NCBI GenBank assembly: GCA_965228695.1
Contig: CBDDIB010000001.1
Span: forward strand, 373,893-437,892
Length of the DNA: 64,000 bases
Direction: 5' to 3'
From: Alphaproteobacteria bacterium
Lineage (GTDB): Bacteria > Pseudomonadota > Alphaproteobacteria > UBA8366
The notes under the pieces were generated by a model. The model saw only the letters and a program-made list of their open reading frames with translations. It had not been told where the DNA came from and ran no database searches. The position numbers and the translations under genes were made by a program. Shown one piece after another: positions 28,975 through 54,350 of the stretch (position 1 is its first letter; each line of letters starts with the position of its first letter).

Positions 28975-30135
28975 ATGCCGAAACTCACCAAACGTCTTGT
29001 CGATTCCCTGAAGCCGGAAGCGTCCGATGTTGTGCATTGGGACGATTCACTATCGGGCTTTGGGGTTCGAGTGCGCCCGACCGGCCGAAAGTCCTACATC
29101 GTCAAATGCCGCTGTCGTGGCCGTCAGATCAAAATGACGATCGGCACCCACGGCCCCATAACTGTTGAGCAAGCCCGGACCAAAGCGCGGGGCATCATTG
29201 CCGAGGCAAAGGCAGGCCAAGATCCGTCCGCTGAGCTTTCCCGGATGCGAAAATCGCCAACGATGAAAGATCTGGGTCAGCGGTTCCTAGACGAATATGT
29301 CCCTACCCATTGCCGGCCTTCCACTGAGCGCGAGTATCGTCGGTCGGTTGAGCTATTCATCAATCCGGAAATCGGGACACGGAAAGTCATCGACATCGAG
29401 CGTACCGACATCGCCAAACTGCATCATGGCTTGCGCGACAAGCCATACCAGGCCAATCGGACGCTCGGTGTGCTTTCGAAGATGTTCAACCTTTCAGAGG
29501 TTTGGGGCCTCCGCCCGGACGGGTCGAACCCTTGCCGGCACGTAAAGAAGTACAAGGAGGAAAAGCGCGAACGTTTTCTCTCCGACGAAGAGTACAAACG
29601 GCTTGGCGAGGCGCTGCGTAAAGCGGAGGTCGAGAGGACCGAGACTCAATCGGCAATCGATGCAATCTGGCTGCTCATGCTGACGGGCTGCCGGCTGAAC
29701 GAAATCATGACGTTGAAGTGGGCATATGTAGACGTCGAAACGAAAGAGTTGCGCCTTCCCGACTCCAAAACCGGAGCCAAAACCGTTCATCTCGGCACTG
29801 CGGCGATCAATCGGCTCAAAAAGGTCAAGAAGCTCGAGGACAACAAGTTCGTCATTACAGGGAAAAAATCTGGAGGACGCCTCACAGATCTTCAGCATCC
29901 CTGGAGACGCATTCGAAAAACGGCCGGCTTGAACGATGTGCGGCTCCACGACCTTCGGCATTCTTTCGCGAGCCATGGTCTTATCGTCGGCGAAGGACTG
30001 CCCATGATCGGAAAGTTGCTGGGGCATTCGCAAATCCAGACAACGGCCCGCTATGCCCATTTGGCGAATGATCCGATCAAGTCGGCCGCCGACCGTATCG
30101 CCGATGGGATCTCGATGTCAGCGGCAGCCTCGTGA
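28975..30135 (+). CDS. int: tyrosine recombinase/integrase with arm-binding domain
   Basis: WD..LSGFGVRV.PTG.KSY N-domain; TGCR, SKTG, HDLRH, LGHS, TARY catalytic residues. Confidence 0.95.
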   Translation: MPKLTKRLVDSLKPEASDVVHWDDSLSGFGVRVRPTGRKSYIVKCRCRGRQIKMTIGTHGPITVEQARTKARGIIAEAKAGQDPSAELSRMRKSPTMKDLGQRFLDEYVPTHCRPSTEREYRRSVELFINPEIGTRKVIDIERTDIAKLHHGLRDKPYQANRTLGVLSKMFNLSEVWGLRPDGSNPCRHVKKYKEEKRERFLSDEEYKRLGEALRKAEVERTETQSAIDAIWLLMLTGCRLNEIMTLKWAYVDVETKELRLPDSKTGAKTVHLGTAAINRLKKVKKLEDNKFVITGKKSGGRLTDLQHPWRRIRKTAGLNDVRLHDLRHSFASHGLIVGEGLPMIGKLLGHSQIQTTARYAHLANDPIKSAADRIADGISMSAAAS

Positions 30136-31534: not shown

Positions 31535-33131
31535 TTACGAGGCTTTCTCAAACAGCTTACCGGACGCCTTCCACTGCTCGATAGCGGGCAGCCCCTTGCG
31601 CTTGGTGTAGCCCTGCATCGGGAAACGCATGTAGCGCGGCAGCCAGCCCTCCACCTTCGTCCGGCCTTCGGTTCCGCCAAGGCAAGCCTTGATGATGTCC
31701 TTCTGCACCTTGGCCGTACCGACCACGTTAGCGGTTGCCGATCTTTTCCCGGCGACCTCGGCCAGCATGGCGTTGATCGCGGGCTTGTCGCGCAGCAGGT
31801 CGAAAAACACATCCTCCGGCTGCCACCACTGGCCCATATCCACCTTGAGGATATGGCCAAGGGCCTCGATCACGGCGGTGCCCGCGCTCAGGCTTTCGCC
31901 CATGACAAAGGCAAGGATGCGCATGATCTCCGTATCGCCAAGCTGCATTAGCCGGGCGAACACGGCGGTCAGTTCCGGGCCGCTGCCGAACGGGCTGTCA
32001 TTCAGCAAAAACGCGCTGTCGTCCTCTAGCTGTAAAAGCGTGGTGACCGCATCACGCTCCTTGGCGAACGCTCCCTGTGCCTTGCTGTCCCTGATGCTGG
32101 CGGCAATTGCCGCACTGCCGTTCGCCTTCTGCATTTCGGGGTCGACCTGCCACAGGCCGGACCCGGCGATCACATGGGCGACCATGAGGCGCAAGGCCAC
32201 CTGCGGGACTTTGAGCAATTCGGTACGGACGGCGTTGTGGCGGTGCAGGTCGCAATAACGAATCGCGGCCTTGGTCAGTTCCGGCTTGGGATCGGCTTTG
32301 AGTTCGCCGCTGGCCTTCGCCGCCGCCCGGTCGAGGCGCTTGGCCTCCTTTTCTTCAATCCAGCCTTCGTGGAACTCGACCTCGCCGCTGCTGCGGCATT
32401 GGATATAGACCTTGCCGCCGTCCTTCTTGCCGCGCTTGACCTTGTCGTAGCGGCCAAAGTAGTCGGCATTCTCCAGAATGAGCACATCGGCCCAGCCGCT
32501 TTCGAGATAGCGCTGCTGGCGCTCGATCACCGCTTCCATTTGCAGCTTCCAGAACGCCCCGGCATCGTCAAAGAACTGCTCTTCGCCGAACAGGTCGCCG
32601 AAGATGGACGCCCGCGCCACCGAACAGCCACGCCTTGAGCGCCCTACCTGTCGGGGCGCGATCCTTGGGATCGCGGAAGCGCTTGAACCAAGCCCTCTGC
32701 TGGCTCTTGCCCGCCATCGTCAGGGTGCGCATGGTTTCGGCGCTGATGTCGCCGCTGCGGTAGGCATTCAGGATCGGCGGGTGAAGATTGGCAATAGCCA
32801 GCCGCTGCCCGACCAGCCGTTCCGTCACCCCGAAATGCGCGGCAATGTCGGCGATGCTACGCCCCTGATTTTTCAGGGCGGCAAAGGCTCTGTACTGGTC
32901 AACCTCGTCCATCGGCAAGCGGGCGATGTTCTCGGCAAGCGATGCCTCGATGGCTTTGGCATCGTCACCGTCCTCAAGCACAATGCAGGGCAGCGGATCG
33001 AAGCCGCCGTCTTCATCGGCAATGACCTGACAGGCTTTGCGGCGGCGCTGCCCGGCGACAACTTCAAAGCCTTCGCAGTTCGGGCGCACCAGCAATGACT
33101 GGATCACGCCGAGGCTACCTCTTCGCGCCAT
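31535..33131 (-). pseudogene. ICE ParB/RepB/Spo0J-like gene, frameshifted and 5'-truncated
   Basis: ParB motifs (VVAGQRR, ASLAEN..R) in 32568-33131 continue in another frame (GDLFGEE..) in 31535-32620; junction near 32605-32615. Confidence 0.8.
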
Positions 33132-33298: not shown

Positions 33299-33751
33299 CT
33301 AGCTGTGATATGCCTCGTTCACCGGCTCGGAAGCCGCCAGGCAGGCGTTCAGGATCGTAAGGGAATGCCTCAACAGCTCAGCGCTTCTTTCGGGTGCGAA
33401 CCAGCGACCGTTGAACTTGCCGCCATGAAAAAGGTTGTTTCTAACCCGGCGCACATAGAGCAGGACACGGTCAGATTGAAGATCGGTTTGGGGAGGAGCC
33501 GCATCCCAACTTAACACGCCGTCTTCGACCATCTGCTTGTTCGGTGGGTGTTCAAGCATATAGGCAACGGCTTCCTTGAGCGCTTCGTCTTGCGGCTCAT
33601 CAAAGATCGCGGCAACGGATACGGCGAAGCCGCGCCAGTTTGGGTCGGCGGGACCGTCACCGTTGTGAAATCCGGCGGCCTTCAGCGCATATTCAAAACG
33701 GGCGAATGTCCTGAATAAATTCGTAGCCAGCATGTTAAGTTCATGTTCCAT
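33299..33751 (-). CDS. small HEPN-like protein
   Basis: RRVRNNLFHGGK (RxxxxH) and F.RFEYALK; starts 3 bp after the Argonaute stop. Confidence 0.7.
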   Translation of the reverse strand: MEHELNMLATNLFRTFARFEYALKAAGFHNGDGPADPNWRGFAVSVAAIFDEPQDEALKEAVAYMLEHPPNKQMVEDGVLSWDAAPPQTDLQSDRVLLYVRRVRNNLFHGGKFNGRWFAPERSAELLRHSLTILNACLAASEPVNEAYHS

Positions 33752-33754
33752 CCG

Positions 33755-35212
33755 CTAAATGTATCTCGTGTAGTCGGTGCTTATAGCCTGGCCTTCTTCT
33801 AAATATTTCAGGACTTCGCCGACCTTACGCGCCGCCCGGATCGGGATCGGCAGCCGCTGATTCATCTGTGTCGAGTTCCAGTTGATCTTGGTCAGCGAAA
33901 AAACCTCATCGGCAATCTGCGATATCGTGCTGTCGCAGCTTTCATGGGGGCAGAGCAGCAGAGGTCGCGGATCGTATTGGCCCGGATAGGTGCCGTAATA
34001 AGGAATGCTGCCGTTTGTGTAGAGCAGGCCCTTGCCGGCAAGATTTACGAACGTGCCGCGAAGCACCGGATAGTTGCCGTCACGCAAAATTTTCACCGCG
34101 TACGATTCCTGGACCCAGACCAGGTCCCGGAGTTCGGTACCGGCCTCATTAAGCGCCTTCAAAGTGCCTTCCGCCTCATCGCTCCGGAAGCGCGAGGTCT
34201 TCAGGACAATCACGCGCGCAGGGAAATGTTTATGGTGGTTCTTGTAAGCCGAGAGCACCTGAGAGGTCAGCTCATAAGCATCGTTGAAGGTCATATAAGG
34301 GTGCCGGCCGCGGCTTTCGGTCTGGGCGCGCTTGCCTTTCAGAATAAAACCGCGGCCGCGCTCATCGAACATTTGCGCCGCGCTCGTAAAGAGCTGCTGG
34401 CCGCCGGCTTCCCGGTAAAAGCTGATTCCAACGTAGCAAGCCGCGTATTCGCCCTCGCGCGGCATCCGGCGCCACGGAATGCGGCCGCTACCCTTGTAGT
34501 AGAGCGTCGTCATCAGGTTCCAGGTTCTGTCAGCCTGATCCTGTATGTCGCGGTCGCGACTTTCCTTGATCTTTCGAGGGATCGATGCCTTCTCATCGAG
34601 AACATCTTCCCAGACGATCTGGATTGGAAAACTCAGGCCCATGGTTCTGGCCTTGAGCATGCCCCGGAAATTCGGGGCATCCGAACCGCTGCTGTCTTCT
34701 TTCTCGGTCGTGCTCTTTGAATCGACCTTGGCGTTCCAGACACGCTCGATCAAAGCGACGGGAAGCGCGACGATCGCCACGTCCGGCCTGTGGCTGCTGT
34801 CATCGAGAGTCTGCAATTCGGAGACGATCTCCGCGACGGCCATCTCCACCGCCTTGTAGTGGTCGGGTTCCTTCCTGATCTTCTCGATCTTGCTTTGAGG
34901 CAGGGCCGCCGTCGCGCCGTCCTCTATCTCAAACCGGCAACGGAAGGGGTTGTTATTGCCAAGCCCCGGAAAGTCCGGGTGCAGGTTCGGGTGCTTCTCG
35001 GTTTTGCCCTTGAATCCCGTCGCGGCATCGGCCAGGAATTTTTGTGTATCTTCGACTGTCTTGGCGCTACCGACGACAGCAAGCCGGATCATTTCTCCCA
35101 GTGGCGGCTGCAGCGGTCCGGCTTCGACAAGCCCCAGACGCGGGTCCGGGTGGTGATGCTGGTCACCAAACTCCAGTTCCGGCTCTTCGAATATCTTGCT
35201 TTCGAAATCCAT
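33755..35212 (-). CDS. short prokaryotic Argonaute (MID-PIWI, catalytically inactive)
   Basis: EPELEFG, LYYK..PW, YVGISFY (Asp replaced), [17 protein letters not shown]; 485 aa, no PAZ. Confidence 0.92.
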
Positions 35213-36534
35213 TAGACAGCGAGCCTTTGCTGGTCATCGGGCTCTTCGGCCTTTTTCTTCGGCGTGCCCCAGACATCTTCGGGCACCCGCGTTTCGAGGG
35301 AGACCTGTGGTGGTTCACCGAACCGTAGACAGGGCTCGGTCCCGGCGTCTTGCTCAAAGAGATCGCCTTTGGCGCGATCCGACTGCGTGAGAAAGCGGTG
35401 CCACATGATGACCTGCCCGCGCAGCGAGGCGCTGTTGTCCATCCGTTTTTTCCCGGACAGCAGCGCATGCGGATAGGAATGCGGCGTAAATCCGTTGGTG
35501 GTGAAGAAATAGGTCGGCGTGATCACCAGGAACCACTGATCGTCCAGCAGCTCGAACCGGGGAACGAACGCGTGGTGACGCACAAAGTCCACGCGCCCCT
35601 CTTCCTTCTTGCTGGTGATGACGTTGACCACGTCGGCGCTGGTCTTTTTCTTCGACGCTTCATAGGGGAATGTGCGCGTTTCATTGGCCCGAAGCGCCCT
35701 GAAATAAAACAGCTTGTTGTCCTTGTGCCAGCCCAGGTCTTCCCAGACCTGGTGCTTGAGTGCGTTTTTCAGCAGGAACGCGAAGTGGTTTTGTTCATCG
35801 AGGTCTTCGTGAAACGCGAGATAGCTCGTCTCGATGGCTTCGACCTGATCAAGATCGACAATATCGCGGCACGGTGATGTCCGCGGATCATGGAATGACC
35901 AGAACGATCCGCCGCGTATAACCCAGTCGAAGCGCGCGGGCTCATCGCCGTCAAGCAGGATCGCGGCGGCCTTCTTGCCGGTATGGGGTGTTGAGGCAAC
36001 GTAGATTTCCGGGGGCAACGTGATAGGCAGAATATTGACGAGCGCTTCCTCGCCGCCGCCAAGCGGCGGAACGTAGTAGCCAAAACCAGCCTTAGGAACT
36101 GTAAGGGCTGCGAGGCGGTCCACAGCATTACTGTCGAGAATGTCGCGTTCCTTGCTGAATCGAAGCCGGCGCTCGCCCTCTGTGAAACCGTTCGGCACCT
36201 CCTGCCAGTAAAAGGTTTCATCCGAGCGCCGGTAAAGGACGATAATCACGGGCAGGTTCGAACCGCGCCAGTAATCCAGGTCTTTATTTCTTAGAAGATA
36301 ACTGAAGCCCTGGTCATCTTCCGATGTATATATGCCCGACTCTGTTGCCTTCACCTGGACAGCAATCATCCGCGCTAGCGGCCGGCCATCATCCATCACC
36401 TCGGCAATACCGTCGATGCCGGCCTCGAGTCGTGAGCGGCCGTCAAACTGAAAGCCGATATTGAGAAACCGCAAGCGCGCTGCCGCCTCGCCGATTTCCC
36501 CGAGCATCTGGCTGGATGTAAGAATCTTCGACAT
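35212..36534 (-). CDS. DUF4365 (DREN) PD-(D/E)xK nuclease fused to APAZ domain
   Basis: GE.GE, GIDG, QVKAT nuclease motifs; C-terminal [20 protein letters not shown] motifs; TAATG overlap with Ago. Confidence 0.85.
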
Positions 36535-36771
36535 ATCTCCATCATAGAACAATCTAAGAACATTTGGTATCAGATTGTGCCTGCTACATGCCATGGTTGT
36601 GGGCAACTTACGACCTCGGCATGAGGTATGATCGCTGCACCGGGGTCGGGAGCCGCGTCTTCGCTATAAGGAAGCGAGAGAGAGTCCGGCCTGCTGGGGT
36701 TCCACCGGACATACCCGAAAAAACAAGAAGAACAGACAGCCTTCAACCAGCATCCTGCCTTTGACCCGCGT

Positions 36772-37893
36772 TCAGCGCGAACCCGTATCGGTGCGCCATC
36801 GGGAGTCGAGCGGTCCCCAAAGAATTTGATGAGGGTCGCGCCGCGCGGCCTCGATCTCTTTTGCGGTGACGGCATAGCGCAGGAAATTGCCCTCGTGGTC
36901 CTCAAGGCAGGTAAAAATTCCTCCGCTCTCATGCAGGATTTTCCTGGGATCGGCGTAGGTGCCGCGTCCGATCATCGTGGCAAGCCGTTCGGGATCGTGG
37001 TGCTCGTACAGGAATGGGTCGAAAGCGCGCGGCGTCTGCGTCTGCGCGATAACGGCGCCCAAGGGCTTGTTCCAGTAATACTGGACGCGCAGCGCATCTT
37101 CGTGAAGGACGGTGTGGTCGTAAAATATCCGCGCCACCAGCTCACCGAACTGGATGGGATGCAGCTTTTCGCAAATGATGTGCTGGAATCTATGAAGCCG
37201 GAACTGCCGATGGACGCCGCCGTCAAAGGCGCAAATAAGGCCGAGGTTGCCTGTCCGCAGCGCAGCTCCCAGCGTAATCAGATTGTCGAAGAAATCGAAC
37301 GCTTCGAACCTCGTGTCGCGCGTGTCGATCTCGACAATATAAAGCGAATAAGGCGGCCCGTAGAAGAATTCCGGGAACGGCGGATCGCCTAGATAGCATG
37401 AATGCATGTCTTTGCGCATCGCATAGGCGCGTTCGATCATGCCGAGATAGGCGATGCCCGGCATAAAGTCTTTCGGAACAACACTGTCCGGGACAGGATC
37501 ATCGCGCGTCCGGTGATCGTGGGAAGCGTGACCCTTTCGGCACAACAGCCAGAAGATTTTGCCGAGCCAGAGCGCAAGAAGTTCAGGATCAAGCTCCTGC
37601 ACAGCGGCAAAGGCATCGCCGGAACGCACGCGGCGCGAAATCTCCGATTCCAGGCGGCCAAAACGATGATGATTGCATTTCTCGCAAATATCGACCCTGA
37701 CGCTCTTGTAAGTCCTGCCGGCAAAGTTGGGGAGCGTCAGCCGCGCCGTTTCCAGCTTGTGATGTTTTTGCAGCCAGCGCGGAAAGATATGCTCCTGCGT
37801 CTTGGAAACCCTGCCGAACTTGCGCCCGCACAGCGGGCAGTGGGTTGCAATATCCCGCAGGGCCAAAACATCGCTTATCATCCGCAGGGACAT
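36772..37893 (-). CDS. HNH-like (treble-clef) nuclease domain protein
   Basis: CPLC..EHIFP.W..CEKCN N-terminal signature; 2-bp gap to upstream gene. Confidence 0.65.
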   Translation of the reverse strand: MSLRMISDVLALRDIATHCPLCGRKFGRVSKTQEHIFPRWLQKHHKLETARLTLPNFAGRTYKSVRVDICEKCNHHRFGRLESEISRRVRSGDAFAAVQELDPELLALWLGKIFWLLCRKGHASHDHRTRDDPVPDSVVPKDFMPGIAYLGMIERAYAMRKDMHSCYLGDPPFPEFFYGPPYSLYIVEIDTRDTRFEAFDFFDNLITLGAALRTGNLGLICAFDGGVHRQFRLHRFQHIICEKLHPIQFGELVARIFYDHTVLHEDALRVQYYWNKPLGAVIAQTQTPRAFDPFLYEHHDPERLATMIGRGTYADPRKILHESGGIFTCLEDHEGNFLRYAVTAKEIEAARRDPHQILWGPLDSRWRTDTGSR

Positions 37894-37895
37894 GA

Positions 37896-39278
37896 TCAGT
37901 CAGGCATCCCGTCAGTGGGGTCGAAATCGGATTCCCCGCCGCTGATGCCGGCAAACACGTCATCGTCTTCCCTGTATGACTGAATCGCGGCGACAACCGC
38001 CCTGTTGCTCTTAACGATCGCTTCAACCAGCTCTTTGAGATAAGCCGTCGTTTCAGCGGTGGCACCTATATAGCCGGCACGGATCAGGTCGAGAAAAGGC
38101 CCTTGCCGCAAGTAGCGGCCGGCCAGACTCTCAAAACTCACGCGGACCGCACCGCGCGGCCCTTTACATGACGGATCAGCCCGCTGCCGCTCAAAATGAT
38201 CTATCGGCATAACGATCCCGGCATTGCCGAGTGCGCCGCCACGCTTGACGAACTTGATATAGAAAACCTGCGAATTGAGACGGTACTCGTACGGACCAGG
38301 CGGATGTTGTTTTGCGAACTTGCGCATCCGTTTGATCTCGGAGTCGAGGTTGGCATCCGGGCGATAAACCCAGTCAGTATCCCGGTCCTTGCGCTTGTGA
38401 GGTTCAAGCATTTTGTACTGGACCATCACAATGTTCTGGCGCGTCGCATTGACATAGATGAGATCGACGCCGAAGACCTTTTCAAGCGGGCGGCGGTTGG
38501 CGGTGAAGACTTCAAGCCGTTCACGCCCCTTCTCGAACACGGCCCGGCCTGTGATGTCGCTGCCGGTCAATTCGTAGTCAGGGAATGTGCGGGCGTCGTG
38601 CTCGACGACGGAATCTTCCATGATGTTGACGCGGGCGAGCGCTGTGTCCTGGTTCCTGGCGAGTTCAAGCGAGACAGCCTGATCGCCGGGCGACAGGCCG
38701 AATGCGCGCAAGGCCGTGTGCACCGCATCTTCTTGGAAGGCATCCATGCTACGGAAATATTTGGGGGCTGAAAGCGACGCGACGGCCGCGCGCATAGCAC
38801 CGCGATTTGACTCGATGGCGGCGAGCTTCTCGACCAGATGAGCGCTGAGCTTTGGCGATAAAGCGATAACGGATTCGCGAGAATCCAGCCTATCACGAAG
38901 ATTGCGCGTATGGGCGTTGTCGGTGACAAGCTTGATAATTTCAGATTTTGACGACGGCTGGATATGCTGGGCGCGCTTGACCTTGATCCGCGATTCCAGC
39001 GTTGTGATGGCGCTGCGCGAACTGGCCAGCCCGAAATAAACTTCACTGCCGTCGTCGCCCTTGCCGATGACGAGGCAGGCAGTCGGTACGCGAACCTTCT
39101 CGAACAGCTCGTGCGACCGTGCGATTGTGAACTCGTTGGCGCCGCGTCGTGACTCACGCAGGCGCGACCATTCCTCACTGTCAAACTGAAACACCACGAG
39201 GGGCTTCTTCTGCACGAGTCGTTTCAGGTTTTCGAGCCACTCATCTGACTTCTTTTTTCTCTTCTTCGTTTGTTTCAT
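37896..39278 (-). CDS. putative PD-(D/E)xK nuclease
   Basis: ED..EHD, LE..GVDLIY, VMVQYK restriction-like motifs; abuts helicase stop. Confidence 0.65.
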   Translation of the reverse strand: MKQTKKRKKKSDEWLENLKRLVQKKPLVVFQFDSEEWSRLRESRRGANEFTIARSHELFEKVRVPTACLVIGKGDDGSEVYFGLASSRSAITTLESRIKVKRAQHIQPSSKSEIIKLVTDNAHTRNLRDRLDSRESVIALSPKLSAHLVEKLAAIESNRGAMRAAVASLSAPKYFRSMDAFQEDAVHTALRAFGLSPGDQAVSLELARNQDTALARVNIMEDSVVEHDARTFPDYELTGSDITGRAVFEKGRERLEVFTANRRPLEKVFGVDLIYVNATRQNIVMVQYKMLEPHKRKDRDTDWVYRPDANLDSEIKRMRKFAKQHPPGPYEYRLNSQVFYIKFVKRGGALGNAGIVMPIDHFERQRADPSCKGPRGAVRVSFESLAGRYLRQGPFLDLIRAGYIGATAETTAYLKELVEAIVKSNRAVVAAIQSYREDDDVFAGISGGESDFDPTDGMPD

Positions 39279-40724
39279 TCACACTCCTGGGTTCAGTACC
39301 GGATTTGTCGAGATAATCGTCAACGACCGCGCCCCGCGCGTAAGCGCGACATACAGTTCTTTTTTCGAAAGCGATGTCGCGTCCAGAACAATGCCGTGAT
39401 CGAATTCCAGCCCTTTGACCAGCAGCGTCGTGCCGATCAGCCTGCGCCGCCCAACGGGACGGCCCTTGTGGCGGAATTCACCGTGATACTTCTCGGCGGC
39501 TTCCGCTAGAGAAAGCTCCGGGTGCAGCACATGTTTTCCGAGCACCCCCAACGCCCGGTAGAACAGGTCGGCGCGGACGACTTCGACGCCTGCGGTCTGT
39601 CTAAGCGCCTGCAGAAACCCCGTCATGGCGGCGCTGCCGGGCGCGACCAGATAGGCATTGGCATTGCGGGCCGCTTCGGGGTTCCGGGTATTGGCCCGGA
39701 TATTGACCTGCTCGCCGCGAACCGTTCCAGCGGGAAGATTCTGCTCAACGGCGGTCATGCATCGTTTGGCGAAGACAACGACCTCCTTCAGGCGTGCCGT
39801 GTCGGTTCGCGCCCGCTCGACCTTCCGAATGAACGAGAACAGGTCTTTCCCCTCGACTTCTTCGATCGAGGAAAAGCGGCCACCAAGATTCCGCGATAGC
39901 TTATGGCACTTGGCCTTGTACTCTTGGCTGCCCCTGTGAATGGCGATCACGGTATGGGCGCGGTCGCACTGGAAATAACGGCAGGCGTTGCCCTGCGACT
40001 GAATAAGCGCCTGCGGATCGGCATTGGCATGCGTGAAGGTAACAGCGGCCGGACGATCCGCGTTCAGATCGACAGGCTGGTCCTGCTCAAGGCGTGTACG
40101 AACATTGCGCAGCCATGTGCCGAAATCGCCCGCGCCGGCCTGTATCCAGCGGTGGGGCACGTCAAGGGCGCCAAGCTGTTCAAAGCGTCCTTCAACGTCG
40201 CGCTCCCAATCTATGGGGCTCTGACCGTCAAAATCGAAGATACCTTGCAGCGGATCGCCAAGTATCCGGCACGGCAGGTCGCGCGCCAGTTTGAGAACGA
40301 TGCCGTGCTGGGCGGCCGAACAATCCTGGTATTCATCGACATAGAGCCCGTCATAGGACGCGCGGACAATCCTGCGGATAAACGCATGATCGAGCAGACC
40401 CGCACAGACTTCGTATAGCGCGTTCCACTGCTCGTTATCCGCGGGGCGCTCATCAGCCCAGCCACATGTACCTGAATAAGAAAGCGAAAGCCGCAATGAC
40501 CAGCTTGCGATCGTATCAATGCGATAGAGCCTGTCACTGACGCCAAGGGCGCGCATTTTGCGCCGCAAGGCGTTCACACCCGCATAGGTGTGGGTCAGGA
40601 TCAGTTGCCGTCCGGCGCTCCGGGCTGTCGACTCCGCGATCAGGTGGGTTTTGCCGTACCCGGCCGGAGCCACGACATAGCCGGCCCCTTGGTGCGCGGC
40701 AAGGATGGCGGACAGCTCACACAT
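39279..40724 (-). CDS. UvrD-like SF1 helicase (GajB-like)
   Basis: APAGYGKT, VDEYQD, GDPLQ.IF, KGLEFD, LYVALTRG; overlaps OLD nuclease stop. Confidence 0.88.
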   Translation of the reverse strand: MCELSAILAAHQGAGYVVAPAGYGKTHLIAESTARSAGRQLILTHTYAGVNALRRKMRALGVSDRLYRIDTIASWSLRLSLSYSGTCGWADERPADNEQWNALYEVCAGLLDHAFIRRIVRASYDGLYVDEYQDCSAAQHGIVLKLARDLPCRILGDPLQGIFDFDGQSPIDWERDVEGRFEQLGALDVPHRWIQAGAGDFGTWLRNVRTRLEQDQPVDLNADRPAAVTFTHANADPQALIQSQGNACRYFQCDRAHTVIAIHRGSQEYKAKCHKLSRNLGGRFSSIEEVEGKDLFSFIRKVERARTDTARLKEVVVFAKRCMTAVEQNLPAGTVRGEQVNIRANTRNPEAARNANAYLVAPGSAAMTGFLQALRQTAGVEVVRADLFYRALGVLGKHVLHPELSLAEAAEKYHGEFRHKGRPVGRRRLIGTTLLVKGLEFDHGIVLDATSLSKKELYVALTRGARSLTIISTNPVLNPGV

Positions 40725-42429
40725 TGTCGATCCAGCCCCGCAAGCTGGTAAGCTGCCGGACCAGATCGCTTTGACGGATGGCGTTGTCAGCCAAGTGGTC
40801 GGAAACCGCTGCCGCCCAGTCGCGGCCCCAGCTTTGCCGCTTGAACCAGTCGCTGGCCTTGGCCGCCCTGCCGAGCGCGATGCGAATTTCCGGCGTGTCG
40901 GCCCACGCCGCAAAATCACGATCAAAACCTTCGCCAAACTGGGTCCGCATCTGATTCAGAAGGCGGGCATCGTCATTCCAGATGGCACGGGCTGCGTGGA
41001 AGGATGCCGTGACGCCCGCCCACGGAAGATCCGCGAACACGCGTTCTTCTATCGACAGCGCGCCGTCCCACTTCGCGACCGTGATACCTGCATTACGCAA
41101 GGCTTGCGCATCGGCATCGGAGAAATCCCCCGGCGCATCGGAATCGGCCAGAACGGCGACATCGTAGCCAAGCGCTTTCAGGTTCTCGGCGATCTCCCTG
41201 ATCTTGCTCACACCAACCGCGTCGAACAACGCAACACCGCGATAGGCGAAGGAATCCTTGTTTTCGGACAAGGTCCAATGATCGTCCAGGCCGCGTAGAA
41301 AACCGACCTCGGTAGCGCCTTCGCAAACGATGATCTTGGGCGCGAGAAACGCTTCGGCACCTGAACGTATTTTGCCCTGTATGGAATCCGCGATGGCAGG
41401 CTTGTTTGCCGCCACCACGTCAATGCGTCCGCCATCGCAATGGACGATATGCAGGTCATCGACAGTCAGTTCGCGCAACACGACGGGCGAGTGGGTGGTC
41501 AGGAAATATTGCCCCGTATCGTCTTCTTTCAAATGTTGCAGGAGCCGGGCAATGCGGTGAGGCTCAAGCCCCACCTCGACCTCATCGAACAGCGTGATAT
41601 GCGGCGCACGCAGCGCTTGTTTCTGCAAACCGGTCGTCAGCATACGCTTGGAACCGAGTCCAAGTTGCCTGAGTGGCATGTCACCGTCATGCAGGGCAAG
41701 GCCAGCCATCCGTACGTTGATGGCGTCGGAATCTAGATGCGCCTTGTAGGATGCGGCAACGTTGACGCCAAGCGCGCGAGCGGTCGTCTCGGCCGCTGCC
41801 GCTACATCGTCAAAGCCTGCCAAATCCTCCACCCGCCGGGCTTCCAGGGCGGATTTGGCGGCACGCGCTGCATCGGCCAGTGACGACGAAATATTTTCGG
41901 TTTCGGTGAGCTGGCTCAGAATCGAGCCGCGCGACCATGTCAAGTGGCGGTCGGAAATCGCGCCAATCAGGCTGACCGACACCCTGGCCCGATCGTTCGC
42001 TCTGAACGGGACGCCTTCATCCTCATCGTTCTTGATGACGGACCATGACGGCTCAAGGTCATCCGCCACTGCAAGGCGGACCCGCAGCGCATCTTCGAGG
42101 CCGTCACCGGGATCGTCAGCGCGAGCAAGCGTTATAGCATTCCAGCCGCACAGCGCGTGACCGTATTTTTCAAGGTCGCGGAACGCATCCGGCAGATCGC
42201 CGAGAACGGCTTCTATCGTGATTGGATTCTCCGGATTGCATAAATGAAAGTCGGCATCATCAAACGACAGGTTCCACTGTGGATGGAAGACCCGGCGCAG
42301 CGCCTCAAGGATTGTCGATTTGGTCGAATCACCGCGCCCAATCAGACACAGAACATTGCGGTCCGGTACCGGCCAGTCGAGTTCGCGGATACCCCGGAAG
42401 TTTTCTACCGATAGATGGCGTATGCGCAT
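40717..42429 (-). CDS. OLD-family ATP-dependent nuclease, ABC ATPase + TOPRIM (GajA-like)
   Basis: ENFRGI, GRGDSTKSTIL, LGLGS, DEVEVGLEP, TTHSP, VCEGATE, ADSD. Confidence 0.9.
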   Translation of the reverse strand: MRIRHLSVENFRGIRELDWPVPDRNVLCLIGRGDSTKSTILEALRRVFHPQWNLSFDDADFHLCNPENPITIEAVLGDLPDAFRDLEKYGHALCGWNAITLARADDPGDGLEDALRVRLAVADDLEPSWSVIKNDEDEGVPFRANDRARVSVSLIGAISDRHLTWSRGSILSQLTETENISSSLADAARAAKSALEARRVEDLAGFDDVAAAAETTARALGVNVAASYKAHLDSDAINVRMAGLALHDGDMPLRQLGLGSKRMLTTGLQKQALRAPHITLFDEVEVGLEPHRIARLLQHLKEDDTGQYFLTTHSPVVLRELTVDDLHIVHCDGGRIDVVAANKPAIADSIQGKIRSGAEAFLAPKIIVCEGATEVGFLRGLDDHWTLSENKDSFAYRGVALFDAVGVSKIREIAENLKALGYDVAVLADSDAPGDFSDADAQALRNAGITVAKWDGALSIEERVFADLPWAGVTASFHAARAIWNDDARLLNQMRTQFGEGFDRDFAAWADTPEIRIALGRAAKASDWFKRQSWGRDWAAAVSDHLADNAIRQSDLVRQLTSLRGWIDNV

Positions 42430-42437
42430 GGACGCCC

Positions 42438-44747
42438 CTACGGAATTGTGTCGAAGCGTACGTAGAACTCCTTGTCCCCGTCAGTGATCTGAAATGCCGG
42501 CTCGAGAGCTTTTGGCACGGGGATGAATATTCGGTTCTTCGTTACGATCGTGGTTGTAGGGAACATCGAGCCGCCTGTCTGGTCGGTCTCAAGAGGCGAT
42601 TTTAGTTCAATGTCATAGTAAAGGCTGAGTTCTCCTGTTGCGTCCGTGAATATATAGATGACGCGGTGCGCCCCCCAGATCAGTTTGGTTGTGTGCGGCC
42701 AGCGCAGAAACTCCCCTTCTCTTTTGATGATACGGTCCGAGAGCGCAAGGAACATTTGGAAATTGTTGAGCTTCGGGTGCTCGGCTGCAACGGTGAGGAC
42801 TTTCTTGTCACTTTGCAGGTCATCCCGCATGAGCGGCGGCGAGGCCTCAAATTCGTTGGCTGGCGGCGCACCATCGGCCGGTCCGATGATGTCGGGGAAT
42901 TCTTCTTCGACGCTGCCGACCTGTTCTTTGCTGACTTGTTGCCGCTGTACGGAAGTGCGGCTTCTGGAAGTCCTGAGAACTTCGGAAAAATCCGCGTTGC
43001 CGGCAAGATAGTCAGCCAGCAACGATTCGATAGCCCCGTAATCGCCCTCCTGAAGGCGGAACAGCTCCTTGTTCTCCTTCAGCCTTTTGAACAGGGCGTC
43101 GCGGCCCTGCTTGGTCGAGGACGGCACGTGATCCCGGATATGGGGATAGACATGCTCGCGCACGAAATCCTTCATGAAACCGTCGAACACATCGCGGGCG
43201 GCGGTATAGCATTCGAGAACGATCTTCACGGACTGGATATCGCGGGCGATCGACAGGAGCAGCGCGATGTCCCTTTTCTCGGCGTGAAAGGTGACGCCAT
43301 GGCTGATCGTGGCGAAAGCCGCATCCACGTCCGGCATGAGATAGTCATCAAGAAGAATGCCGCGCAGCCGGACAAGAAACATGGCCTCTTCGAACGTAAG
43401 CTGCGTGGCGGCAATCCTGTCAACGATGACGTGCTCTGGCACCTGCTCCAGATGAACGATCTCATTCAGGTAGCGAAGCTGAAGCTTGCGGCGCGGATTG
43501 GCCTGGCTGACATGAAACAGATTGGCCTGATCGGTTCCAAATCGTTTCAGGATCGTGCTGTCCTGACCCACATAGAAATGTTTGGGCTTGTTCGGCTCGT
43601 AGGTCTGCACCTCGCCGAGCGGTATCATCGTGTCGGCGGGCAACACGGAGATTTTGACCTTATGCGCAAGCGCAAACTGGCCGTGCGAGAGGATATATTG
43701 CTGGAACTGCTGGTTCGCGTCGGCCGCGTCGGTCTGCGCAATGTCGGCGGACGCCTCGGCCTCGATCAGCTCAACAAGGTTCGCAACATGCTGGATGCTG
43801 TCCCGGCTAAGGGCCTCCCGTCCTGCGGTTGGGTGAAGGATGTCGAGATTGACAAATCCGCCCAGCCCGTAGTGGCCGGATACCGGGATCGGTGCGAGGC
43901 CGAACAGATTGCGGAATCCGTGCGTGGGTCCGCTCTGCTGAACCAGGAATACTTCGCCTTTGATGGGTACGCCGTTCAGCGAGATGTCAGTGAGCCGCGC
44001 CAGCATCCGGCTTTGGGCGTTGATTGAGACTTGCAGCGTCCCGGCAAACTCGCCGCGCGATACTGCGCGAGATGATACCTGCTCAAAGCCCGCGGCCTTT
44101 CCGGCAAGCGTGTCCGCAAAGCCCTGCTGGCTGATAAGCTGTCCGTTCACCAAAACGGGAACCGGCAGGAACTGCACATACTGTTTCAGGTATTCGCAGG
44201 TTGCGGCTTCATCGATCGGATAGGCGGGGTCGAGTTCAGCATCAATCAACGTCCCCGGCTCGCGGTCATCGGCGATGCGTTCGAGATCGATGCAGTCCTG
44301 CGCGATCTTGAGATCCTCGCGCCGCGCCGTGCTGATGAGCGTCGTATCGGAGTCGATGTTACGGGTTTCCACGCGCAGCGCCGTGCAGACGCCGAAATTC
44401 GCCATCGCGCCGATCCCGAACGTTCCAATGACGCCGGACTGCTGGGCAAGTTCGGATTTCTTGCCGCTCGAACCGGCCTTCCAGAAATTGTTCTTAAGGA
44501 CATCCTCGGCCATGCCGATGCCGTCATCGCGCACGGTCAGCCGGTTCGCCTCGACGGTAATTTCGATTTTGCGTTCGGCAGCCACAAGTCCTTGCGCCGT
44601 GCAGCGCATGAGAATTGCGTCATAGGCGTTCTGCACGTTTTCGCGAAGGAAGGCTTTGGGAGAGTCGTAAATCTCCGATGACAGGATTTCGAGAATCCTG
44701 CTTGTCTCAACATCGAATGCGATCTGTTCCTTGGCTGGCGCCGTCAT
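42438..44747 (-). CDS. Hsp90-like GHKL ATPase with long uncharacterised C-terminal region
   Basis: IYDSPKAFLRENVQNAYDA, DDGIGM, IGTFGIG, GT motifs. Confidence 0.85.
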   Translation of the reverse strand: MTAPAKEQIAFDVETSRILEILSSEIYDSPKAFLRENVQNAYDAILMRCTAQGLVAAERKIEITVEANRLTVRDDGIGMAEDVLKNNFWKAGSSGKKSELAQQSGVIGTFGIGAMANFGVCTALRVETRNIDSDTTLISTARREDLKIAQDCIDLERIADDREPGTLIDAELDPAYPIDEAATCEYLKQYVQFLPVPVLVNGQLISQQGFADTLAGKAAGFEQVSSRAVSRGEFAGTLQVSINAQSRMLARLTDISLNGVPIKGEVFLVQQSGPTHGFRNLFGLAPIPVSGHYGLGGFVNLDILHPTAGREALSRDSIQHVANLVELIEAEASADIAQTDAADANQQFQQYILSHGQFALAHKVKISVLPADTMIPLGEVQTYEPNKPKHFYVGQDSTILKRFGTDQANLFHVSQANPRRKLQLRYLNEIVHLEQVPEHVIVDRIAATQLTFEEAMFLVRLRGILLDDYLMPDVDAAFATISHGVTFHAEKRDIALLLSIARDIQSVKIVLECYTAARDVFDGFMKDFVREHVYPHIRDHVPSSTKQGRDALFKRLKENKELFRLQEGDYGAIESLLADYLAGNADFSEVLRTSRSRTSVQRQQVSKEQVGSVEEEFPDIIGPADGAPPANEFEASPPLMRDDLQSDKKVLTVAAEHPKLNNFQMFLALSDRIIKREGEFLRWPHTTKLIWGAHRVIYIFTDATGELSLYYDIELKSPLETDQTGGSMFPTTTIVTKNRIFIPVPKALEPAFQITDGDKEFYVRFDTIP

Positions 44748-46195
44748 TACTTCAACCTCGCCGCATATTTGTCACGTATCTCAATGACCGCGCCGTCGGC
44801 TGCACCGGCGATCAGCGGCAGCTTCAACAGCTCTGCAAGGCGCTGCCGATTGTCGGCAGCCCACAAGGCATCCATAAGTGCAATCGCTTCGGCCGTGCTT
44901 TCGGGCGGGTCGAACGTACCTGCGATCCCGACTTGGTCATCAAGACGGATCAGGCAGTCAAGGAGCACGCGGCGAGCCAGCGGCTCCGCCGGCGCCAGTG
45001 GCGAGAGGATTTGCACGGCGGAACCATAATCGCCGTTATCATACGCGGCCTGGGCCTGCGTCAGCAGGACCGTGTTGCGGTCCGGTCTGACGAATGGTTC
45101 CGGTGGCGGATCGAATGAAAAATCCAGATAGCCGGTCTTGTTAGGCGGCAATGAACGAGCACCCCAAATAGGCATACGCAAATTGTCATTGTGCATTTCG
45201 CGAACATGCAAACGGCCCTTCCTGTTCGGGACATCAAGTTCCACGACATTATAGGCGCGGCCATGGCGGAAGGCGGCGCCGCCGCACAGCGTACCGGCGC
45301 TGATAACGGTGATGCGGCGATCGGGACCGTGACGGAAACGCGTATCAAGAAACTGCGGCTTGTGTTGATGACCGTGGAACCCAAGACTGAACCCGCCATC
45401 GACGAGATTCTGGACAATATCGGGGTCCATATAATCAACCTCCGCCGGCGGTCCTTCCGTGTTGTGATGCCAGACGGCAATGCGCAGATGCTCCTGTGCA
45501 CTTGATAACTGGCGTAGCCGCTTTCCTGCATAGGCGATGCAATCGGGGTGAATAGCGCCTTGGCGGTTCAAGAGGTCGTTATTGTGGCAACTGCAAAATC
45601 CGACCACGACGATCTCAAGGTCCGGAAGCTCGAAGACATCAAGCTGGCTGTCCGGTTCTAGAGAATAGGCGCGCTGCCCGTCATAAAAGCGGCCGTAAAA
45701 ATCGACGAACGCCGCAAAGCGCTGGCGGTACATGTCCCAGTCGGTAATCTCAAAGAGAGAAAAGTCATCCCATGACCAGCGCATCGGCGAATCCGGCTTG
45801 AAGAGTTCGGCGACAAGCGCCTTGTCGGTGCCGGCGGTCATCTCGATTGACGTGAGGGACTCGCGGAAATGGTGGTCGCTTACATCGTGATTGCCGGGGA
45901 TAAGAATGACACGCCGCTTGTCACCTCCCACAAAGCGGTCGGTAAGTTCGTTAAGGAAGGCTAACGCTTCATCGTATTGCTTTCGCAGTGCCGCTTCTGC
46001 GTCTGCCGCACCATGCCTGACGCCCTGAATGATATCGCCACTAACAATTATGAGTTTGGGCGGTTCAATGCGCGGGTCGTCATGTAACGTGTATCTGTCG
46101 CGGTCCCTTTCGAGAGAGTCGAGCAACACCTGGTTGCCGATCGGGTTTGCCGGATCGCGGTGCAGATCGGATATGTGGAGCACACTGAGCGTCAT
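44747..46195 (-). CDS. calcineurin-like metallophosphoesterase with C-terminal helical (TPR-like) region
   Basis: HISDLH, SGD, PGNHD, WHH, HGHQH motifs; 1-bp overlap with the ATPase start. Confidence 0.88.
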   Translation of the reverse strand: MTLSVLHISDLHRDPANPIGNQVLLDSLERDRDRYTLHDDPRIEPPKLIIVSGDIIQGVRHGAADAEAALRKQYDEALAFLNELTDRFVGGDKRRVILIPGNHDVSDHHFRESLTSIEMTAGTDKALVAELFKPDSPMRWSWDDFSLFEITDWDMYRQRFAAFVDFYGRFYDGQRAYSLEPDSQLDVFELPDLEIVVVGFCSCHNNDLLNRQGAIHPDCIAYAGKRLRQLSSAQEHLRIAVWHHNTEGPPAEVDYMDPDIVQNLVDGGFSLGFHGHQHKPQFLDTRFRHGPDRRITVISAGTLCGGAAFRHGRAYNVVELDVPNRKGRLHVREMHNDNLRMPIWGARSLPPNKTGYLDFSFDPPPEPFVRPDRNTVLLTQAQAAYDNGDYGSAVQILSPLAPAEPLARRVLLDCLIRLDDQVGIAGTFDPPESTAEAIALMDALWAADNRQRLAELLKLPLIAGAADGAVIEIRDKYAARLK

Positions 46196-46201
46196 CGCGA
46201 T

Positions 46202-46939
46202 CTAACTCCGCGCTGCTTCCGCCGCGACGTGTCCGGCGAGTTCGGTGACGAATGTGCGCAGGCCAGTCAAGTCGCTCAGCTCCGCATAAGCGCCGTCCGC
46301 CGAAGCCGAGCGCGGCGATGTCAGAATTGAGGCTGTTGTATAAAGCTGCTCCTGCACCAGCTTGCGGCAGAGGATGTTATAGCGCTCCGCGTAGGACGCG
46401 CCCTGAAACTCCTTGAATACGGGGAAATGCGGCGAGGTATCCCGCACCGGCGAGCGCGATGCCGGCGCGTCTTCTAGCAGCATCAGCCAGCCGACGAAAG
46501 GGCGCGGCTGCTCACCAAACGCGCTTTCCCGATAGGCCGTCCAGAGATCATGCGCCGTGCCGATGGCTTCTTCCGAGCGGTTGTTGAAATTGTTGCCGAA
46601 AGACGGGCCGACCTGGCTTTTGAACTCGAGCGCCGCGATCAGACGGCCTTCATTGATAACCAGAAGGTCCCACAGCTTCGTGGGCCGAAAGTAGCCCGGC
46701 AATGTCAGCACGCGGCGATTCTGGTGGATATCGGCATGGTCAAGGCCGTTGGCCCGCACGATGTCGATCACTAGGGCGATAAAGCCATCCATGTTCTTGC
46801 CGCCGGTGACGCCGGCGCGTTCGCCCTGATCGGCCTTGCCGGCTTCAATCTGCTTCTGGCGCGCCTTTTCGCGATTCCCCCAAAACGCCTGGACGGCTTC
46901 GCGGGCCTTTCGTTCGTAGTCGGCAAGATCAATGGCCAT
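46202..46939 (-). CDS. PaeR7I/XhoI-family type II restriction endonuclease
   Basis: [48 protein letters not shown]. Confidence 0.92.
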
Positions 46940-46947
46940 GAACCCCC

Positions 46948-48666
46948 CTATTCGCCGTTACCGCCGATGGCGGCACGTTCTTCTTTTGACAGGCCATAGA
47001 GCTTGGCGACGGCCTTGTTGCAGGCGTCAACATCATTGCGCGCCGCCGCTTCGATCAGCTCGGCTTGCTGGGCTGCGGAAACATCCTGCCAGCGCGGCAG
47101 GCGGATGCGCCGCAGATATTGCGCCTGAAACCGCAGATACCCCCCGCGCATGCGGGTCGCGTAGATCGACACGAAGAGCTTGGCGATGCCCGAGCGCAGC
47201 ACGGCGCGCAGCGCCCTCAGATCCCACTCGTCTGAAACGATGAAGTAAAGATTGTGGTGCGGGTACAGGCGCCCGTCTTCATAGACGATGTGCGCTTCGC
47301 CCTTAATGTCGGGGATCAGCAGCTTGGGTCTTCCGGCAAGCGCCGGATAAATCCGGTCGATCGTCCGGTACCAGTTGGCGGGCGCTTTCTGTGCAACATG
47401 CCGTTTGGCGATCTGATCCTTACGCGCTTCCAGAAAGGCTTTCAGGCGGGGATAGTCGTTCAGATCGACAAGACCACCGCTATCAGCAAACGGATTGATA
47501 ACGCCGAGGCCGCGCCATTTGACCTCGCCGCTGTCGATATCGCGGGTCATGGCCAGCGGCAGCTTGCGGTCCTCCTCCACGTCGAGTTCGTCGAACGGGC
47601 CGATAAAAGCCTTGTCCGCGCCTGTCGCCACGCCGATCCCGACCTTGCACCCGGCATCTTCAATGGCCGGGTAGTCGCGTTCCAACCGGCGGATCAGCAT
47701 GAGCTGGTCGGGCGATTCCAGAATCCAGGGCTGCGCCCCGGCGGCCACATCAGCCATTTCCTTGACCGGCCCGTCGGCGGGCGGTGCGTCGCCCGTCAGC
47801 AACTGTACAGCAAGCTCGTCGAGAACGGCTTTGTCGATGGCCGGGCGGTGCGCGATCCGCGTCTTGCCCGGCTTTTCTTTTGTGATGATGGTGATCGCCG
47901 GATAGGCGATGACCTCGGCATGAAAAGCCGGCGTGTCCGTCATATCGACATAGGCTTTCAGATGGTAGCTGTCAGCCACCATCTGCCGTAGCGGGCCGCC
48001 ATAGCGGTTCTTCATCCAGCGGTCGGCGCAGATAAAGCCCAGCGTGCCGCCATCGGCCAGCAATGTGAGCGACCGTTCGATGAAAGGGATATAGATGTCG
48101 GCGCGGTCGAACACGGTGCGGTAACGCGCTCGGTACTCGGCAATCAGCGCGTCGGGGATCAGCTCCTGCCGCACATAAGGGGGATTGCCGACAACAAAAC
48201 CGAACGCGCCGGGCAGATCGGTCAGCAGGAAATCCCCCTGTAAGAGCCATGTGCCGGCAAGCTGTTCTGCGGCCTCCGCGTCGATACCGGCCTCTCTCAG
48301 CGCGGCAATCACCTTGCTGCGCGTGGCCCCGAACGATGATTCGTGTAGCTCGACGCCGCGTATGCAAGGCGCCAGCACCGTGGCTGCATCGCCGGACGGA
48401 TCGCCTTCTCGCCAGCTTGCCAGCAGGCGCCCGATCACAGTCTGCAAAAAATCGCCGTCACCGAAGGACGGCTCCAGAAGGCGGTAGCTGTAAAGCGGAC
48501 GGTCGGCCGTATAGCCGGCAAGATCGAGAATGAACTCGACCACTTCGCGCCTTGTATAGATCGCGCCGCGTTGCTCGATCCCGGCGGCAGCAAGAAGGGC
48601 GACAGCATCGGTCACCGGGCACAGGCCCGGCAGCGACGCTTGCTGTGCGGAAGACAAAACGGCCAT
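46948..48666 (-). CDS. N6-adenine DNA methyltransferase (M.PaeR7I/TaqI-like, gamma class)
   Basis: [11 protein letters not shown] motif I followed by VGNPPY motif IV; TRD with RFQAQYLR. Confidence 0.93.
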
Positions 48667-52987: not shown

Positions 52988-52997
52988 CAATCGTCCC

Positions 52998-54332: not shown

Positions 54333-54350
54333 TGCGCGTATCCCTAAGCC

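Follow-up and report, generated by a model that had tools for sequence, protein, structure and literature searches.

SPARDA systems pair a short prokaryotic Argonaute (pAgo) with a partner in which a DREN nuclease is fused to an APAZ domain, and the characterized member, NbaSPARDA, has been described as displaying RNA-guided, target-DNA-triggered collateral DNase and RNase activity (10.1101/2023.06.08.544223). The description in that preprint treats SPARDA as a two-gene system and reports that, with the two genes placed in Escherichia coli, NbaSPARDA is loaded with guide RNAs of 17-22 nt with a 5'-AU start and defends against both plasmids and phages. Here, we analyze a 64,000-nucleotide stretch of contig CBDDIB010000001.1 from an Alphaproteobacteria bacterium (assembly GCA_965228695.1, positions 373,893 to 437,892 of the forward strand), hereafter the window, in which a SPARDA module is directly followed by a third gene for a 150-aa HEPN-like protein that we term mini-HEPN. 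An earlier note on this DNA had proposed a three-component SPARDA variant, whose HEPN protein could produce the guide RNAs, serve as a second effector or regulate the system. We hold with moderate confidence that mini-HEPN is instead an autonomous HEPN-type effector, co-transcribed with SPARDA, and not a guide-making component.

An autonomous add-on best explains the data for three reasons. Elsewhere, the family stands alone on mobile DNA, has no fixed partner and is highly conserved whatever its neighbor; SPARDA and the HEPN gene are separable in both directions within the sub-clade that combines them; and NbaSPARDA, as two genes in E. coli, is guide-loaded and protective.

The SPARDA module and its third gene

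Judged from their sequences, DREN-APAZ and the short pAgo form a genuine SPARDA module of two components, in line with the assignment made in the earlier note. The DREN-APAZ protein matches Pfam DUF4365 over residues 13-143 (E 5.3e-27) and the PADLOC model Aga_REase-PNTD1-PNTD2 over residues 1-437 of 440 (E 1.6e-179). It also aligns over residues 1-428 with chain D of PDB entry 9jsb, named 'DREN-APAZ' (E 9.6e-187), residues 1-102 matching one to one, so that both the PADLOC and the PDB alignments place the APAZ domain C-terminal to, and fused with, the DREN nuclease. Residues D41, Q60 and K62 of DREN are invariant in an alignment of 20 relatives including the window's protein, and the D41A/Q60A/K62A substitutions define the catalytically dead NbaSPARDA mutant (Prostova et al. 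preprint, 10.1101/2023.06.08.544223). The adjacent short pAgo matches PADLOC pAgo_I (class I, E 3.1e-174) and aligns without gaps to 9jsb_A (1-485 to 1-485, E 7.1e-261). Its MID pocket residues R183, K187 and K240, the positions mutated to kill NbaSPARDA (10.1101/2023.06.08.544223), are invariant in an alignment of 12 relatives including the window's. The module thus combines a DREN nuclease that keeps its catalytic residues with a neighboring short pAgo whose guide 5'-end pocket is intact. Given its near-identity to the solved SPARDA pAgo and the statement in the same preprint that short pAgos are devoid of PIWI catalytic residues (10.1101/2023.06.08.544223), the pAgo of the window probably lacks the PIWI catalytic tetrad. 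Protein lengths, domain order and gene overlap are those of SPARDA as represented by NbaSPARDA and by PDB entries 9jsb, 9jsp, 9jsz, 9jt2, 9vx1 and 9vx6. The locus differs from them by the third, putatively translationally coupled, 150-aa HEPN-like gene located 3' of the pAgo gene.

The three open reading frames (ORFs) are arranged in tandem on the minus strand, in the order DREN-APAZ, pAgo and mini-HEPN. The DREN-APAZ stop overlaps the pAgo start in the sequence TAATG, and a 3-bp gap, CGG, separates the pAgo stop (TAG) from the ATG of the 150-aa ORF. The earlier note had the coordinates, gene order, TAATG overlap, 3-bp gap, protein length and RNNLFH motif right throughout. For DREN-APAZ, a longer TTG frame reaches 36606, and we adopted the ATG at 36534. 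Because of the TAATG overlap and the 3-bp gap, we infer that the three genes are co-transcribed. The intergenic region 5' of DREN-APAZ is the sole sizeable gap in the gene row and presumably holds the promoter; a scan for the sigma-70 consensus found no minus-strand promoter in it, and a terminator scan found no terminator-like site between pAgo and mini-HEPN or just 3' of mini-HEPN.

The 150-aa ORF is a real gene rather than a chance frame, because it has 1192 homologous clusters, it evolves under purifying selection against its cassette relatives (ratio of nonsynonymous to synonymous substitution rates, dN/dS, 0.07-0.11) and its AlphaFold2 (AF2) model reaches a predicted local distance difference test score (pLDDT) of 93.8, with a predicted template modeling score (pTM) of 0.89. 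The size of the family was counted as clusters at 90% identity and near-query length, which number 1192 and nearly all span 145-165 aa, and as clusters at 50% identity with E ≤ 1e-3, which number 1642. Among 64 diverse homologues, E20, K24, W39, P70, Q73, R104, N106 and L107 are invariant, and N105, F108 and H109 are nearly so (H109 in at least 90%), whereas all six RNNLFH positions are invariant in 20 closer sequences. The protein therefore carries a conserved Rx4-6H motif of the HEPN type (R104-N-N-L-F-H109).

The AF2 model comprises a long helix 1, short helices, a β-hairpin (72-83), a helix (92-108), a loop (110-119) and a further helix (120-140). RNNLFH closes helix 92-108 and extends into the loop after it, and the invariant acidic residue E20 falls in helix 1. 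HEPN domains, as described by Anantharaman et al. (2013, PMC3710099), carry the Rx4-6H motif at such a helix-loop position and an acidic residue that is conserved in their N-terminal helix, and the modeled layout of mini-HEPN agrees with this arrangement. An exhaustive VIA structural search returned HEPN proteins in its top rows (8xdj_A, Z 6.0; 1jog_A, 5.8; 1wwp_B, 5.7; AbiA 8oz7_A, 5.5) and further HEPN rows below them (5yep, 1wol, 2hsb and 1ufb), all with Z below 8, which is the chance range for helical bundles. A Foldseek search of the PDB with the model gave no match at E ≤ 0.001, and re-alignment of the Foldseek list with VIA was topped by 1wol at a Z of only 4.8.

In a profile search of PDB sequences, CRISPR-associated proteins were matched in their HEPN region, but only weakly (E 0.19-0.32), some UniRef homologues carry the name 'Apea-like HEPN domain-containing protein', and the ESM Atlas returned unnamed clusters, the nearest named one being pEK499_p136 (HEPN family) at 0.77, which we use as a lead only. 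No Pfam (even at E 10), NCBIfam or PADLOC family corresponds to mini-HEPN, and PHROG phrog_19013, of unknown function, matches it over its full length (E 4.3e-50). Altogether, the data give good but not conclusive support to a HEPN-like protein, and the earlier note's view of a HEPN-like third gene tightly coupled to pAgo is borne out by the motif, the AF2 layout and the 3-bp junction.

The best structural matches are the HEPN-MNT toxins (PDB 8xdj, 5yep, 1jog and 1wwp; Z 6.0-5.1), which resemble mini-HEPN in size, in their helical-bundle core and in having an Rx4-6H motif where helix meets loop. In contrast with these toxins, the mini-HEPN family has neither an MNT gene nor another conserved partner gene alongside, it has no Pfam HEPN match, and between its helix 1 and the helix that bears the motif it has an extra β-hairpin (72-83) as well as short helices. 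Fourteen members are longer, fused forms, against 1192 clusters near the query length. In a few of them a Mrr_cat restriction-nuclease domain or an EVE (PUA-like) domain is joined to mini-HEPN (P0127, P0393, 349 aa; P0396, P0397; P0155), and neither pAgo nor APAZ is the fusion partner in any of the 14. Visual inspection suggests a D...E-x-K pattern at the N-terminus of P0155.

Distribution of the third gene among SPARDA loci and beyond

A metagenome scan with the pAgo alignment yielded 55 loci, 16 of which were dropped because the 3' end of the pAgo gene was missing or because less than 460 bp followed it, leaving 39 usable loci. Mini-HEPN lies directly behind pAgo in four of them (L092, L095, L097 and L136) and is absent from the other 35. 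Among 400 genomes of the same class, we found one other SPARDA (G112), with no mini-HEPN in the 4.4 kb downstream. The plasmid collection contains 28 plasmids with a DREN-APAZ match (H1-H28), of which 23 are full-length; none of these 23 carries mini-HEPN anywhere, and the two inspected directly (73% and 69% DREN-APAZ identity) are two-gene modules. In sum, 38 of the 42 usable SPARDA loci (39 metagenomic, two plasmid and G112) are devoid of mini-HEPN, which is confined to one pAgo sub-clade and is not conserved across SPARDA. The three-component variant put forward in the earlier note survives in the sense that the gene recurs in that sub-clade (seven of ten tree rows, plus partial loci L001, L009, L092 and L136), and it is not supported elsewhere, given the 38 loci and all 23 plasmids that lack the gene. 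Among papers combining SPARDA or short Argonaute with HEPN, no title or abstract concerns a HEPN third gene, although a full text or supplement may mention one.

These counts bear directly on the possibility that mini-HEPN generates guides, its RNase cutting transcripts into small RNAs that the short pAgo would load. The idea draws only on the position of an RNase-like gene beside a guide-dependent pAgo, and on the open origin of short-pAgo guides, and we consider it very improbable. HEPN RNases are metal-independent and leave a 5'-OH, whereas the MID pockets of Argonautes usually hold a 5'-phosphate, which counts against such a supply. Most members of the mini-HEPN family have no Argonaute nearby, and the gene is missing from most SPARDA loci and from every plasmid with a full-length DREN-APAZ. 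Moreover, the guides of NbaSPARDA are reported to track transcript abundance in E. coli given the two SPARDA genes only (10.1101/2023.06.08.544223). As NbaSPARDA made from these two genes is guide-loaded and defends the cell, a guide-producing role for a third gene is unlikely. Since most SPARDA systems, including the characterized one, do without mini-HEPN, it is an unlikely source of short-pAgo guides, and this part of the earlier proposal is not supported.

We built a quick pAgo tree of 50 rows, from which partial pAgos, short pAgos of the distant fused kind and the duplicates of G112 and of the window were excluded. All seven HEPN-positive full-length pAgos fall into one ten-row group (Shimodaira-Hasegawa-like approximate likelihood ratio test, SH-aLRT, 91), which further contains two HEPN-negative loci (L093 and L091, with pAgos 91% and 85% identical, respectively) and one unscorable locus. 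In a FastTree analysis of 84 HEPN sequences, a branch with support 97 sets the nine pAgo-linked members apart, and these are nested within members that have no pAgo. Judged from these trees, the pattern fits one capture of mini-HEPN in a SPARDA sub-clade, followed by co-inheritance and at least two losses. Separation in the other direction is seen in Palleronia salina (L009:1567-2462), which retains, at 85-88% nucleotide identity to L002-L004, the last 93 bp of pAgo, an intact HEPN ORF and ~350 bp of downstream sequence, the rest of SPARDA being gone. Since homology is limited there to the stretch from 93 bp before the pAgo stop and includes the intact HEPN ORF, the HEPN gene outlived SPARDA at this locus. 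A further small ORF (77-147 aa) occurs on the same strand 3' of the HEPN gene in L002-L004, L009, L097 and L136; the window has no such ORF.

Conversely, a genome scan limited to one genome per species identified 397 relatives of mini-HEPN, and we analyzed the best 80 loci by tblastn with the window's pAgo and DREN-APAZ. A pAgo lies directly upstream in five of these 80 loci (L001-L004 and L009), all of them Rhodobacterales with HEPN proteins 71-73% identical. The sensitivity of the search was adequate, because distant short pAgos at 26-29% identity were detected as well. In the plasmid collection, mini-HEPN occurs in 11 records, none with DREN-APAZ and none with a pAgo nearby. The family is thus not specific to pAgo neighborhoods: in the gene-neighborhood survey that the earlier note had suggested, such neighborhoods proved rare (five of 80 genomic loci, none of 11 plasmids), the first outcome which that note had itself listed as speaking against its proposal.

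Clustering of the neighbors over the surveyed loci revealed no partner family common to more than five loci (the largest non-HEPN cluster covers five). In 19 of the 75 non-SPARDA loci, an immediate neighbor has a PADLOC match (E ≤ 1e-12). Defense genes among the immediate neighbors include AbiJ/PDC-S32, Abi_C/AbiJ, Shedu SduA, AbiEii-WYL, a type I S subunit, type II and III methylases and HEC-05/GmrSD, as well as other type I, II and III restriction-modification (RM) parts, PDC-S02, -S06, -S16, -S25, -S31, DrmC and AriA. Integrases, transposases, resolvases and a P4-type primase make up the mobile-element neighbors. Elsewhere, the gene stands by itself: in a Vibrio (L029), attC-type repeats of a chromosomal integron array flank it as a single-ORF cassette, and the same holds in a Pseudomonas array of 16-17 such repeats (L026); on a Citrobacter plasmid of 4.9 kb, it is the sole cargo apart from mob, ccdAB and rep. 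Since this widespread family usually stands alone, mini-HEPN of the window is probably a separate add-on. The HEPN tree is discordant with taxonomy, with Deinococcota among Betaproteobacteria and a Methanosarcinaceae metagenome-assembled genome (MAG) next to Microbulbifer, which indicates frequent horizontal transfer.

Several observations concern individual members of the family. The mini-HEPN of the archaeal Methanosarcinaceae MAG (L039:4977-6459) is 48% identical to that of the window and lies beside a PDC-S02 candidate, which suggests gene transfer between domains. In L006-L008, PDC-S32/AbiJ_NTD4 precedes mini-HEPN and overlaps it by 4 bp; Abi_C/AbiJ lies upstream in L010, whereas L018 and L024 have PDC-S32 downstream. 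These AbiJ-like neighbors themselves end in a HEPN domain, and the adjacency recurs in about four independent lineages. Two HEPN proteins could genuinely be paired here. Finally, a distant homologue (29% identity, E 4e-6) is encoded by Escherichia phage vB_EcoM-683R1 (L147:3923-4435) and appears in four E. coli phage records, within a row of tail and baseplate genes, an odd site for a defense or toxin gene.

Solitary HEPN cassettes have precedents. The 'Integron cassette HEPN' family (PDB 3jrt), as described by Anantharaman et al. (2013, PMC3710099), is likewise a single small HEPN-like ORF in an integron cassette, and a preprint on the Vibrio cholerae superintegron presents Esos as an anti-phage cassette made of one HEPN-like gene (Darracq et al., 10.1101/2024.07.02.601686), which by this description resembles mini-HEPN. 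The mini-HEPN family profile did not find 3jrt in PDB sequences (E up to 10), nor was this entry among the top 50 structural rows.

These surroundings also invite the idea that mini-HEPN, instead of defending the cell, is a mobile-element gene with a selfish or stress function, such as an addiction or dormancy RNase, or an anti-defense factor, and that it merely landed behind pAgo on a conjugative element. The small plasmid, the integron arrays, the integrases, transposases, resolvases and P4-type primase, the full-length PHROG match and the window itself, which is an integrative conjugative element, are all in keeping with this, as is the stress-dormancy role that Anantharaman et al. (2013, PMC3710099) proposed for integron HEPN domains. 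We nevertheless consider it improbable: the immediate neighbors are often defense genes (19 of 75 loci), the gene shares strand and operon with defense genes and not with transfer or leading-region genes, and the fusion partners, Mrr_cat and EVE, are typical sensor or effector domains of defense.

Independent effector or SPARDA component

On the autonomous-effector reading, a SPARDA module, carried here as cargo in the defense island of an integrative conjugative element, acquired mini-HEPN behind its pAgo gene in a single capture within one sub-clade, and the gene has since been inherited along with the operon, apart from at least two losses. Mini-HEPN would most likely act alone, probably as a metal-independent RNase that halts growth upon infection or stress, and would borrow the transcription of the SPARDA operon, probably with translational coupling. 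The cassette would thereby hold two independent defense layers, and mini-HEPN would not be needed for guide loading or for SPARDA activity. The data show the gene order and junctions, SPARDA membership by sequence, the size and varied contexts of the family, the single capture and the purifying selection, whereas we infer the RNase chemistry, the role in defense or abortive infection and the independence from SPARDA.

A number of observations weigh against this interpretation. No cognate antitoxin is visible that would keep a free HEPN RNase harmless, and the RNase activity, the trigger and the defense phenotype of mini-HEPN are all predictions. The fold match lies below the level that is safe for helical bundles, and no Pfam HEPN model matches the protein, even at E 10. 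Within each pairwise comparison, the three genes have similar dS values and the HEPN gene a dN/dS of ~0.1, as would be equally expected of a working third subunit (dN/dS is 0.07-0.11 for HEPN, 0.04-0.09 for pAgo and 0.06-0.13 for DREN-APAZ; dS above ~1.5 is saturated, which makes the values of distant pairs rough). The cassette has been retained over ~19% pAgo divergence in seven of the ten rows of the sub-clade, and its junction is as tight as those of true subunits, with the 3-bp gap here and a gene overlap in L002-L004. In a Pyrinomonadaceae MAG (L020, 3965-9030), mini-HEPN lies between the type III mod and res genes, with gaps of 2 and 18 bp. More generally, a same-strand gene occurs at most 60 bp upstream in ~22 of 76 loci and mini-HEPN directly follows other defense genes, so that co-operation with them is possible. 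Lastly, the rare Mrr_cat-HEPN fusions imply that the domain is able to work with a PD-(D/E)xK nuclease. A complex prediction with pAgo, residues 1-365 of DREN-APAZ and the HEPN partner scored 0.00 in two runs made without controls and weighs neither way on binding.

Many of these points would be accounted for if mini-HEPN were a lineage-specific SPARDA accessory, functionally tied to the system in this sub-clade. It could be a second RNase effector that is released or activated when SPARDA fires, a fail-safe that responds to SPARDA inhibition (compare PrrC in its RM locus) or a regulator that restrains the DREN nuclease. The single capture, seen in the grouping of the nine pAgo-linked HEPNs, fits such a tie, as do the confinement of all HEPN-positive full-length pAgos to one group, the tight pAgo-HEPN junctions, the similar dS of the three genes and the purifying selection on the HEPN gene. 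So do the insertions of the family into other defense operons (mod/res of L020, and positions directly behind AbiJ-like, AbiEii and Shedu genes) and the Mrr_cat-HEPN and EVE-HEPN fusions. The sequence of the family, however, is 40-87% identical across unrelated partners, and this high conservation argues against partner-specific interfaces. The family also occurs without any partner, in integron cassettes and on the 4.9-kb plasmid; L091 and L093 have lost the HEPN gene and L009 has kept it after losing SPARDA; and a closely related, solved SPARDA works as two proteins. We therefore judge an accessory role unlikely, while allowing it an appreciable share of the probability.

A broader form of the same thought is that mini-HEPN may be a portable plug-in effector, one highly conserved module recruited behind or inside many unrelated defense operons (SPARDA, type III RM mod/res, AbiJ/PDC-S32, AbiEii and Shedu). 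Triggering or disabling of the host system would set it off, so that it would provide a generic fail-safe or a second RNase arm. By analogy, it would resemble a minimal, partner-agnostic PrrC. We regard this as rather improbable; were it true, the SPARDA of this sub-clade would be a three-part system with DNase and RNase arms. The PrrC/RloC anticodon nucleases are likewise HEPN effectors whose genes are wedged into another defense operon, as mini-HEPN is in mod/res of L020, and an RM-embedded habit has been described for PrrC and ApeA (Anantharaman et al. 2013, PMC3710099). They differ by being large ABC-ATPase fusions, whereas mini-HEPN is a bare protein of ~150 aa, mostly without a fixed partner. 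In L076, mini-HEPN is similarly placed, between a type II methylase and a helicase-domain protein.

The conjugative element and its defense cargo

The window is an integrative conjugative element, with a tyrosine integrase and a ParB-like gene on one side and Trb/VirB type IV secretion genes on the other (Table 1). Searches of the DNA beside the integrase revealed no tRNA, tmRNA or Rfam family. Between the two sides runs a single-strand row of defense cargo consisting of SPARDA with mini-HEPN, a 373-aa/460-aa gene pair, Gabija, a HATPase_c_3/metallophosphoesterase pair and an XhoI-type RM system. In Alphaproteobacteria, plasmids often carry DREN-APAZ/SPARDA as cargo, and 18 of the 28 plasmids with a DREN-APAZ match are predicted to be conjugative. 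The two plasmid modules inspected directly lie near ParB-, toprim- and DUF3991-type genes, as the module of the window lies near a ParB-like gene.

Table 1. Features of the window, with positions counted from its first nucleotide
Feature	Position	Strand	Remarks
Tyrosine integrase	28975-30135	+	Arm-binding domain
ParB-like gene	32568-33131	-	
Mini-HEPN-like gene	33299..33751	-	150 aa; RNNLFH (Rx4H) at residues 104-109
Short pAgo (MID-PIWI)	33755..35212	-	485 aa; start overlaps DREN-APAZ stop
DREN(DUF4365)-APAZ, SPARDA effector subunit	35212..36534	-	440 aa
Intergenic region 5' of DREN-APAZ	36535..36771	-	presumed promoter region of the three-gene operon
373-aa gene	36772-37893	-	only a sub-threshold HNH_5 zinc-finger match, residues 19-39
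460-aa gene	37896-39278	-	no Pfam, PADLOC or NCBIfam match; nearest Atlas clusters unnamed, one with 1156 members
Gabija system, complete	39279-42429	-	PADLOC matches: GajA, E 4.3e-196; GajB, E 2.5e-154
769-aa HATPase_c_3 protein overlapping a 482-aa calcineurin-like phosphoesterase	42438-46195	-	no PADLOC match
XhoI-type restriction endonuclease	46202-46939		
XhoI-type methylase	46948-48756		
Trb/VirB type IV secretion genes	49927-58352	-	TrbI, CagX, VirB8, TrbL, TrbE/VirB4-type

Since the GajB model match begins at residue 82 of the longest ORF, the true start of this gene is probably downstream of the TTG at 40937. Two gene pairs in the row deserve mention. The tightly packed 373-aa and 460-aa genes (36772-39278), located between Gabija and SPARDA, are a candidate for an uncharacterized defense system, and the HATPase_c_3 and phosphoesterase pair, located between Gabija and the XhoI-type RM system, may be another two-gene defense system.

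The SPARDA part of the cassette is already well understood, and the copy described here is one more member. The family of the third gene, in contrast, is absent from Pfam, NCBIfam and PADLOC and behaves like a single-gene defense or toxin module of integrons, plasmids and defense islands, which makes it a reasonable candidate for a new one-gene defense system. The SPARDA and HEPN cassette of this one sub-clade also offers a cheap test of whether co-transcribed defense neighbors co-operate or merely ride along.

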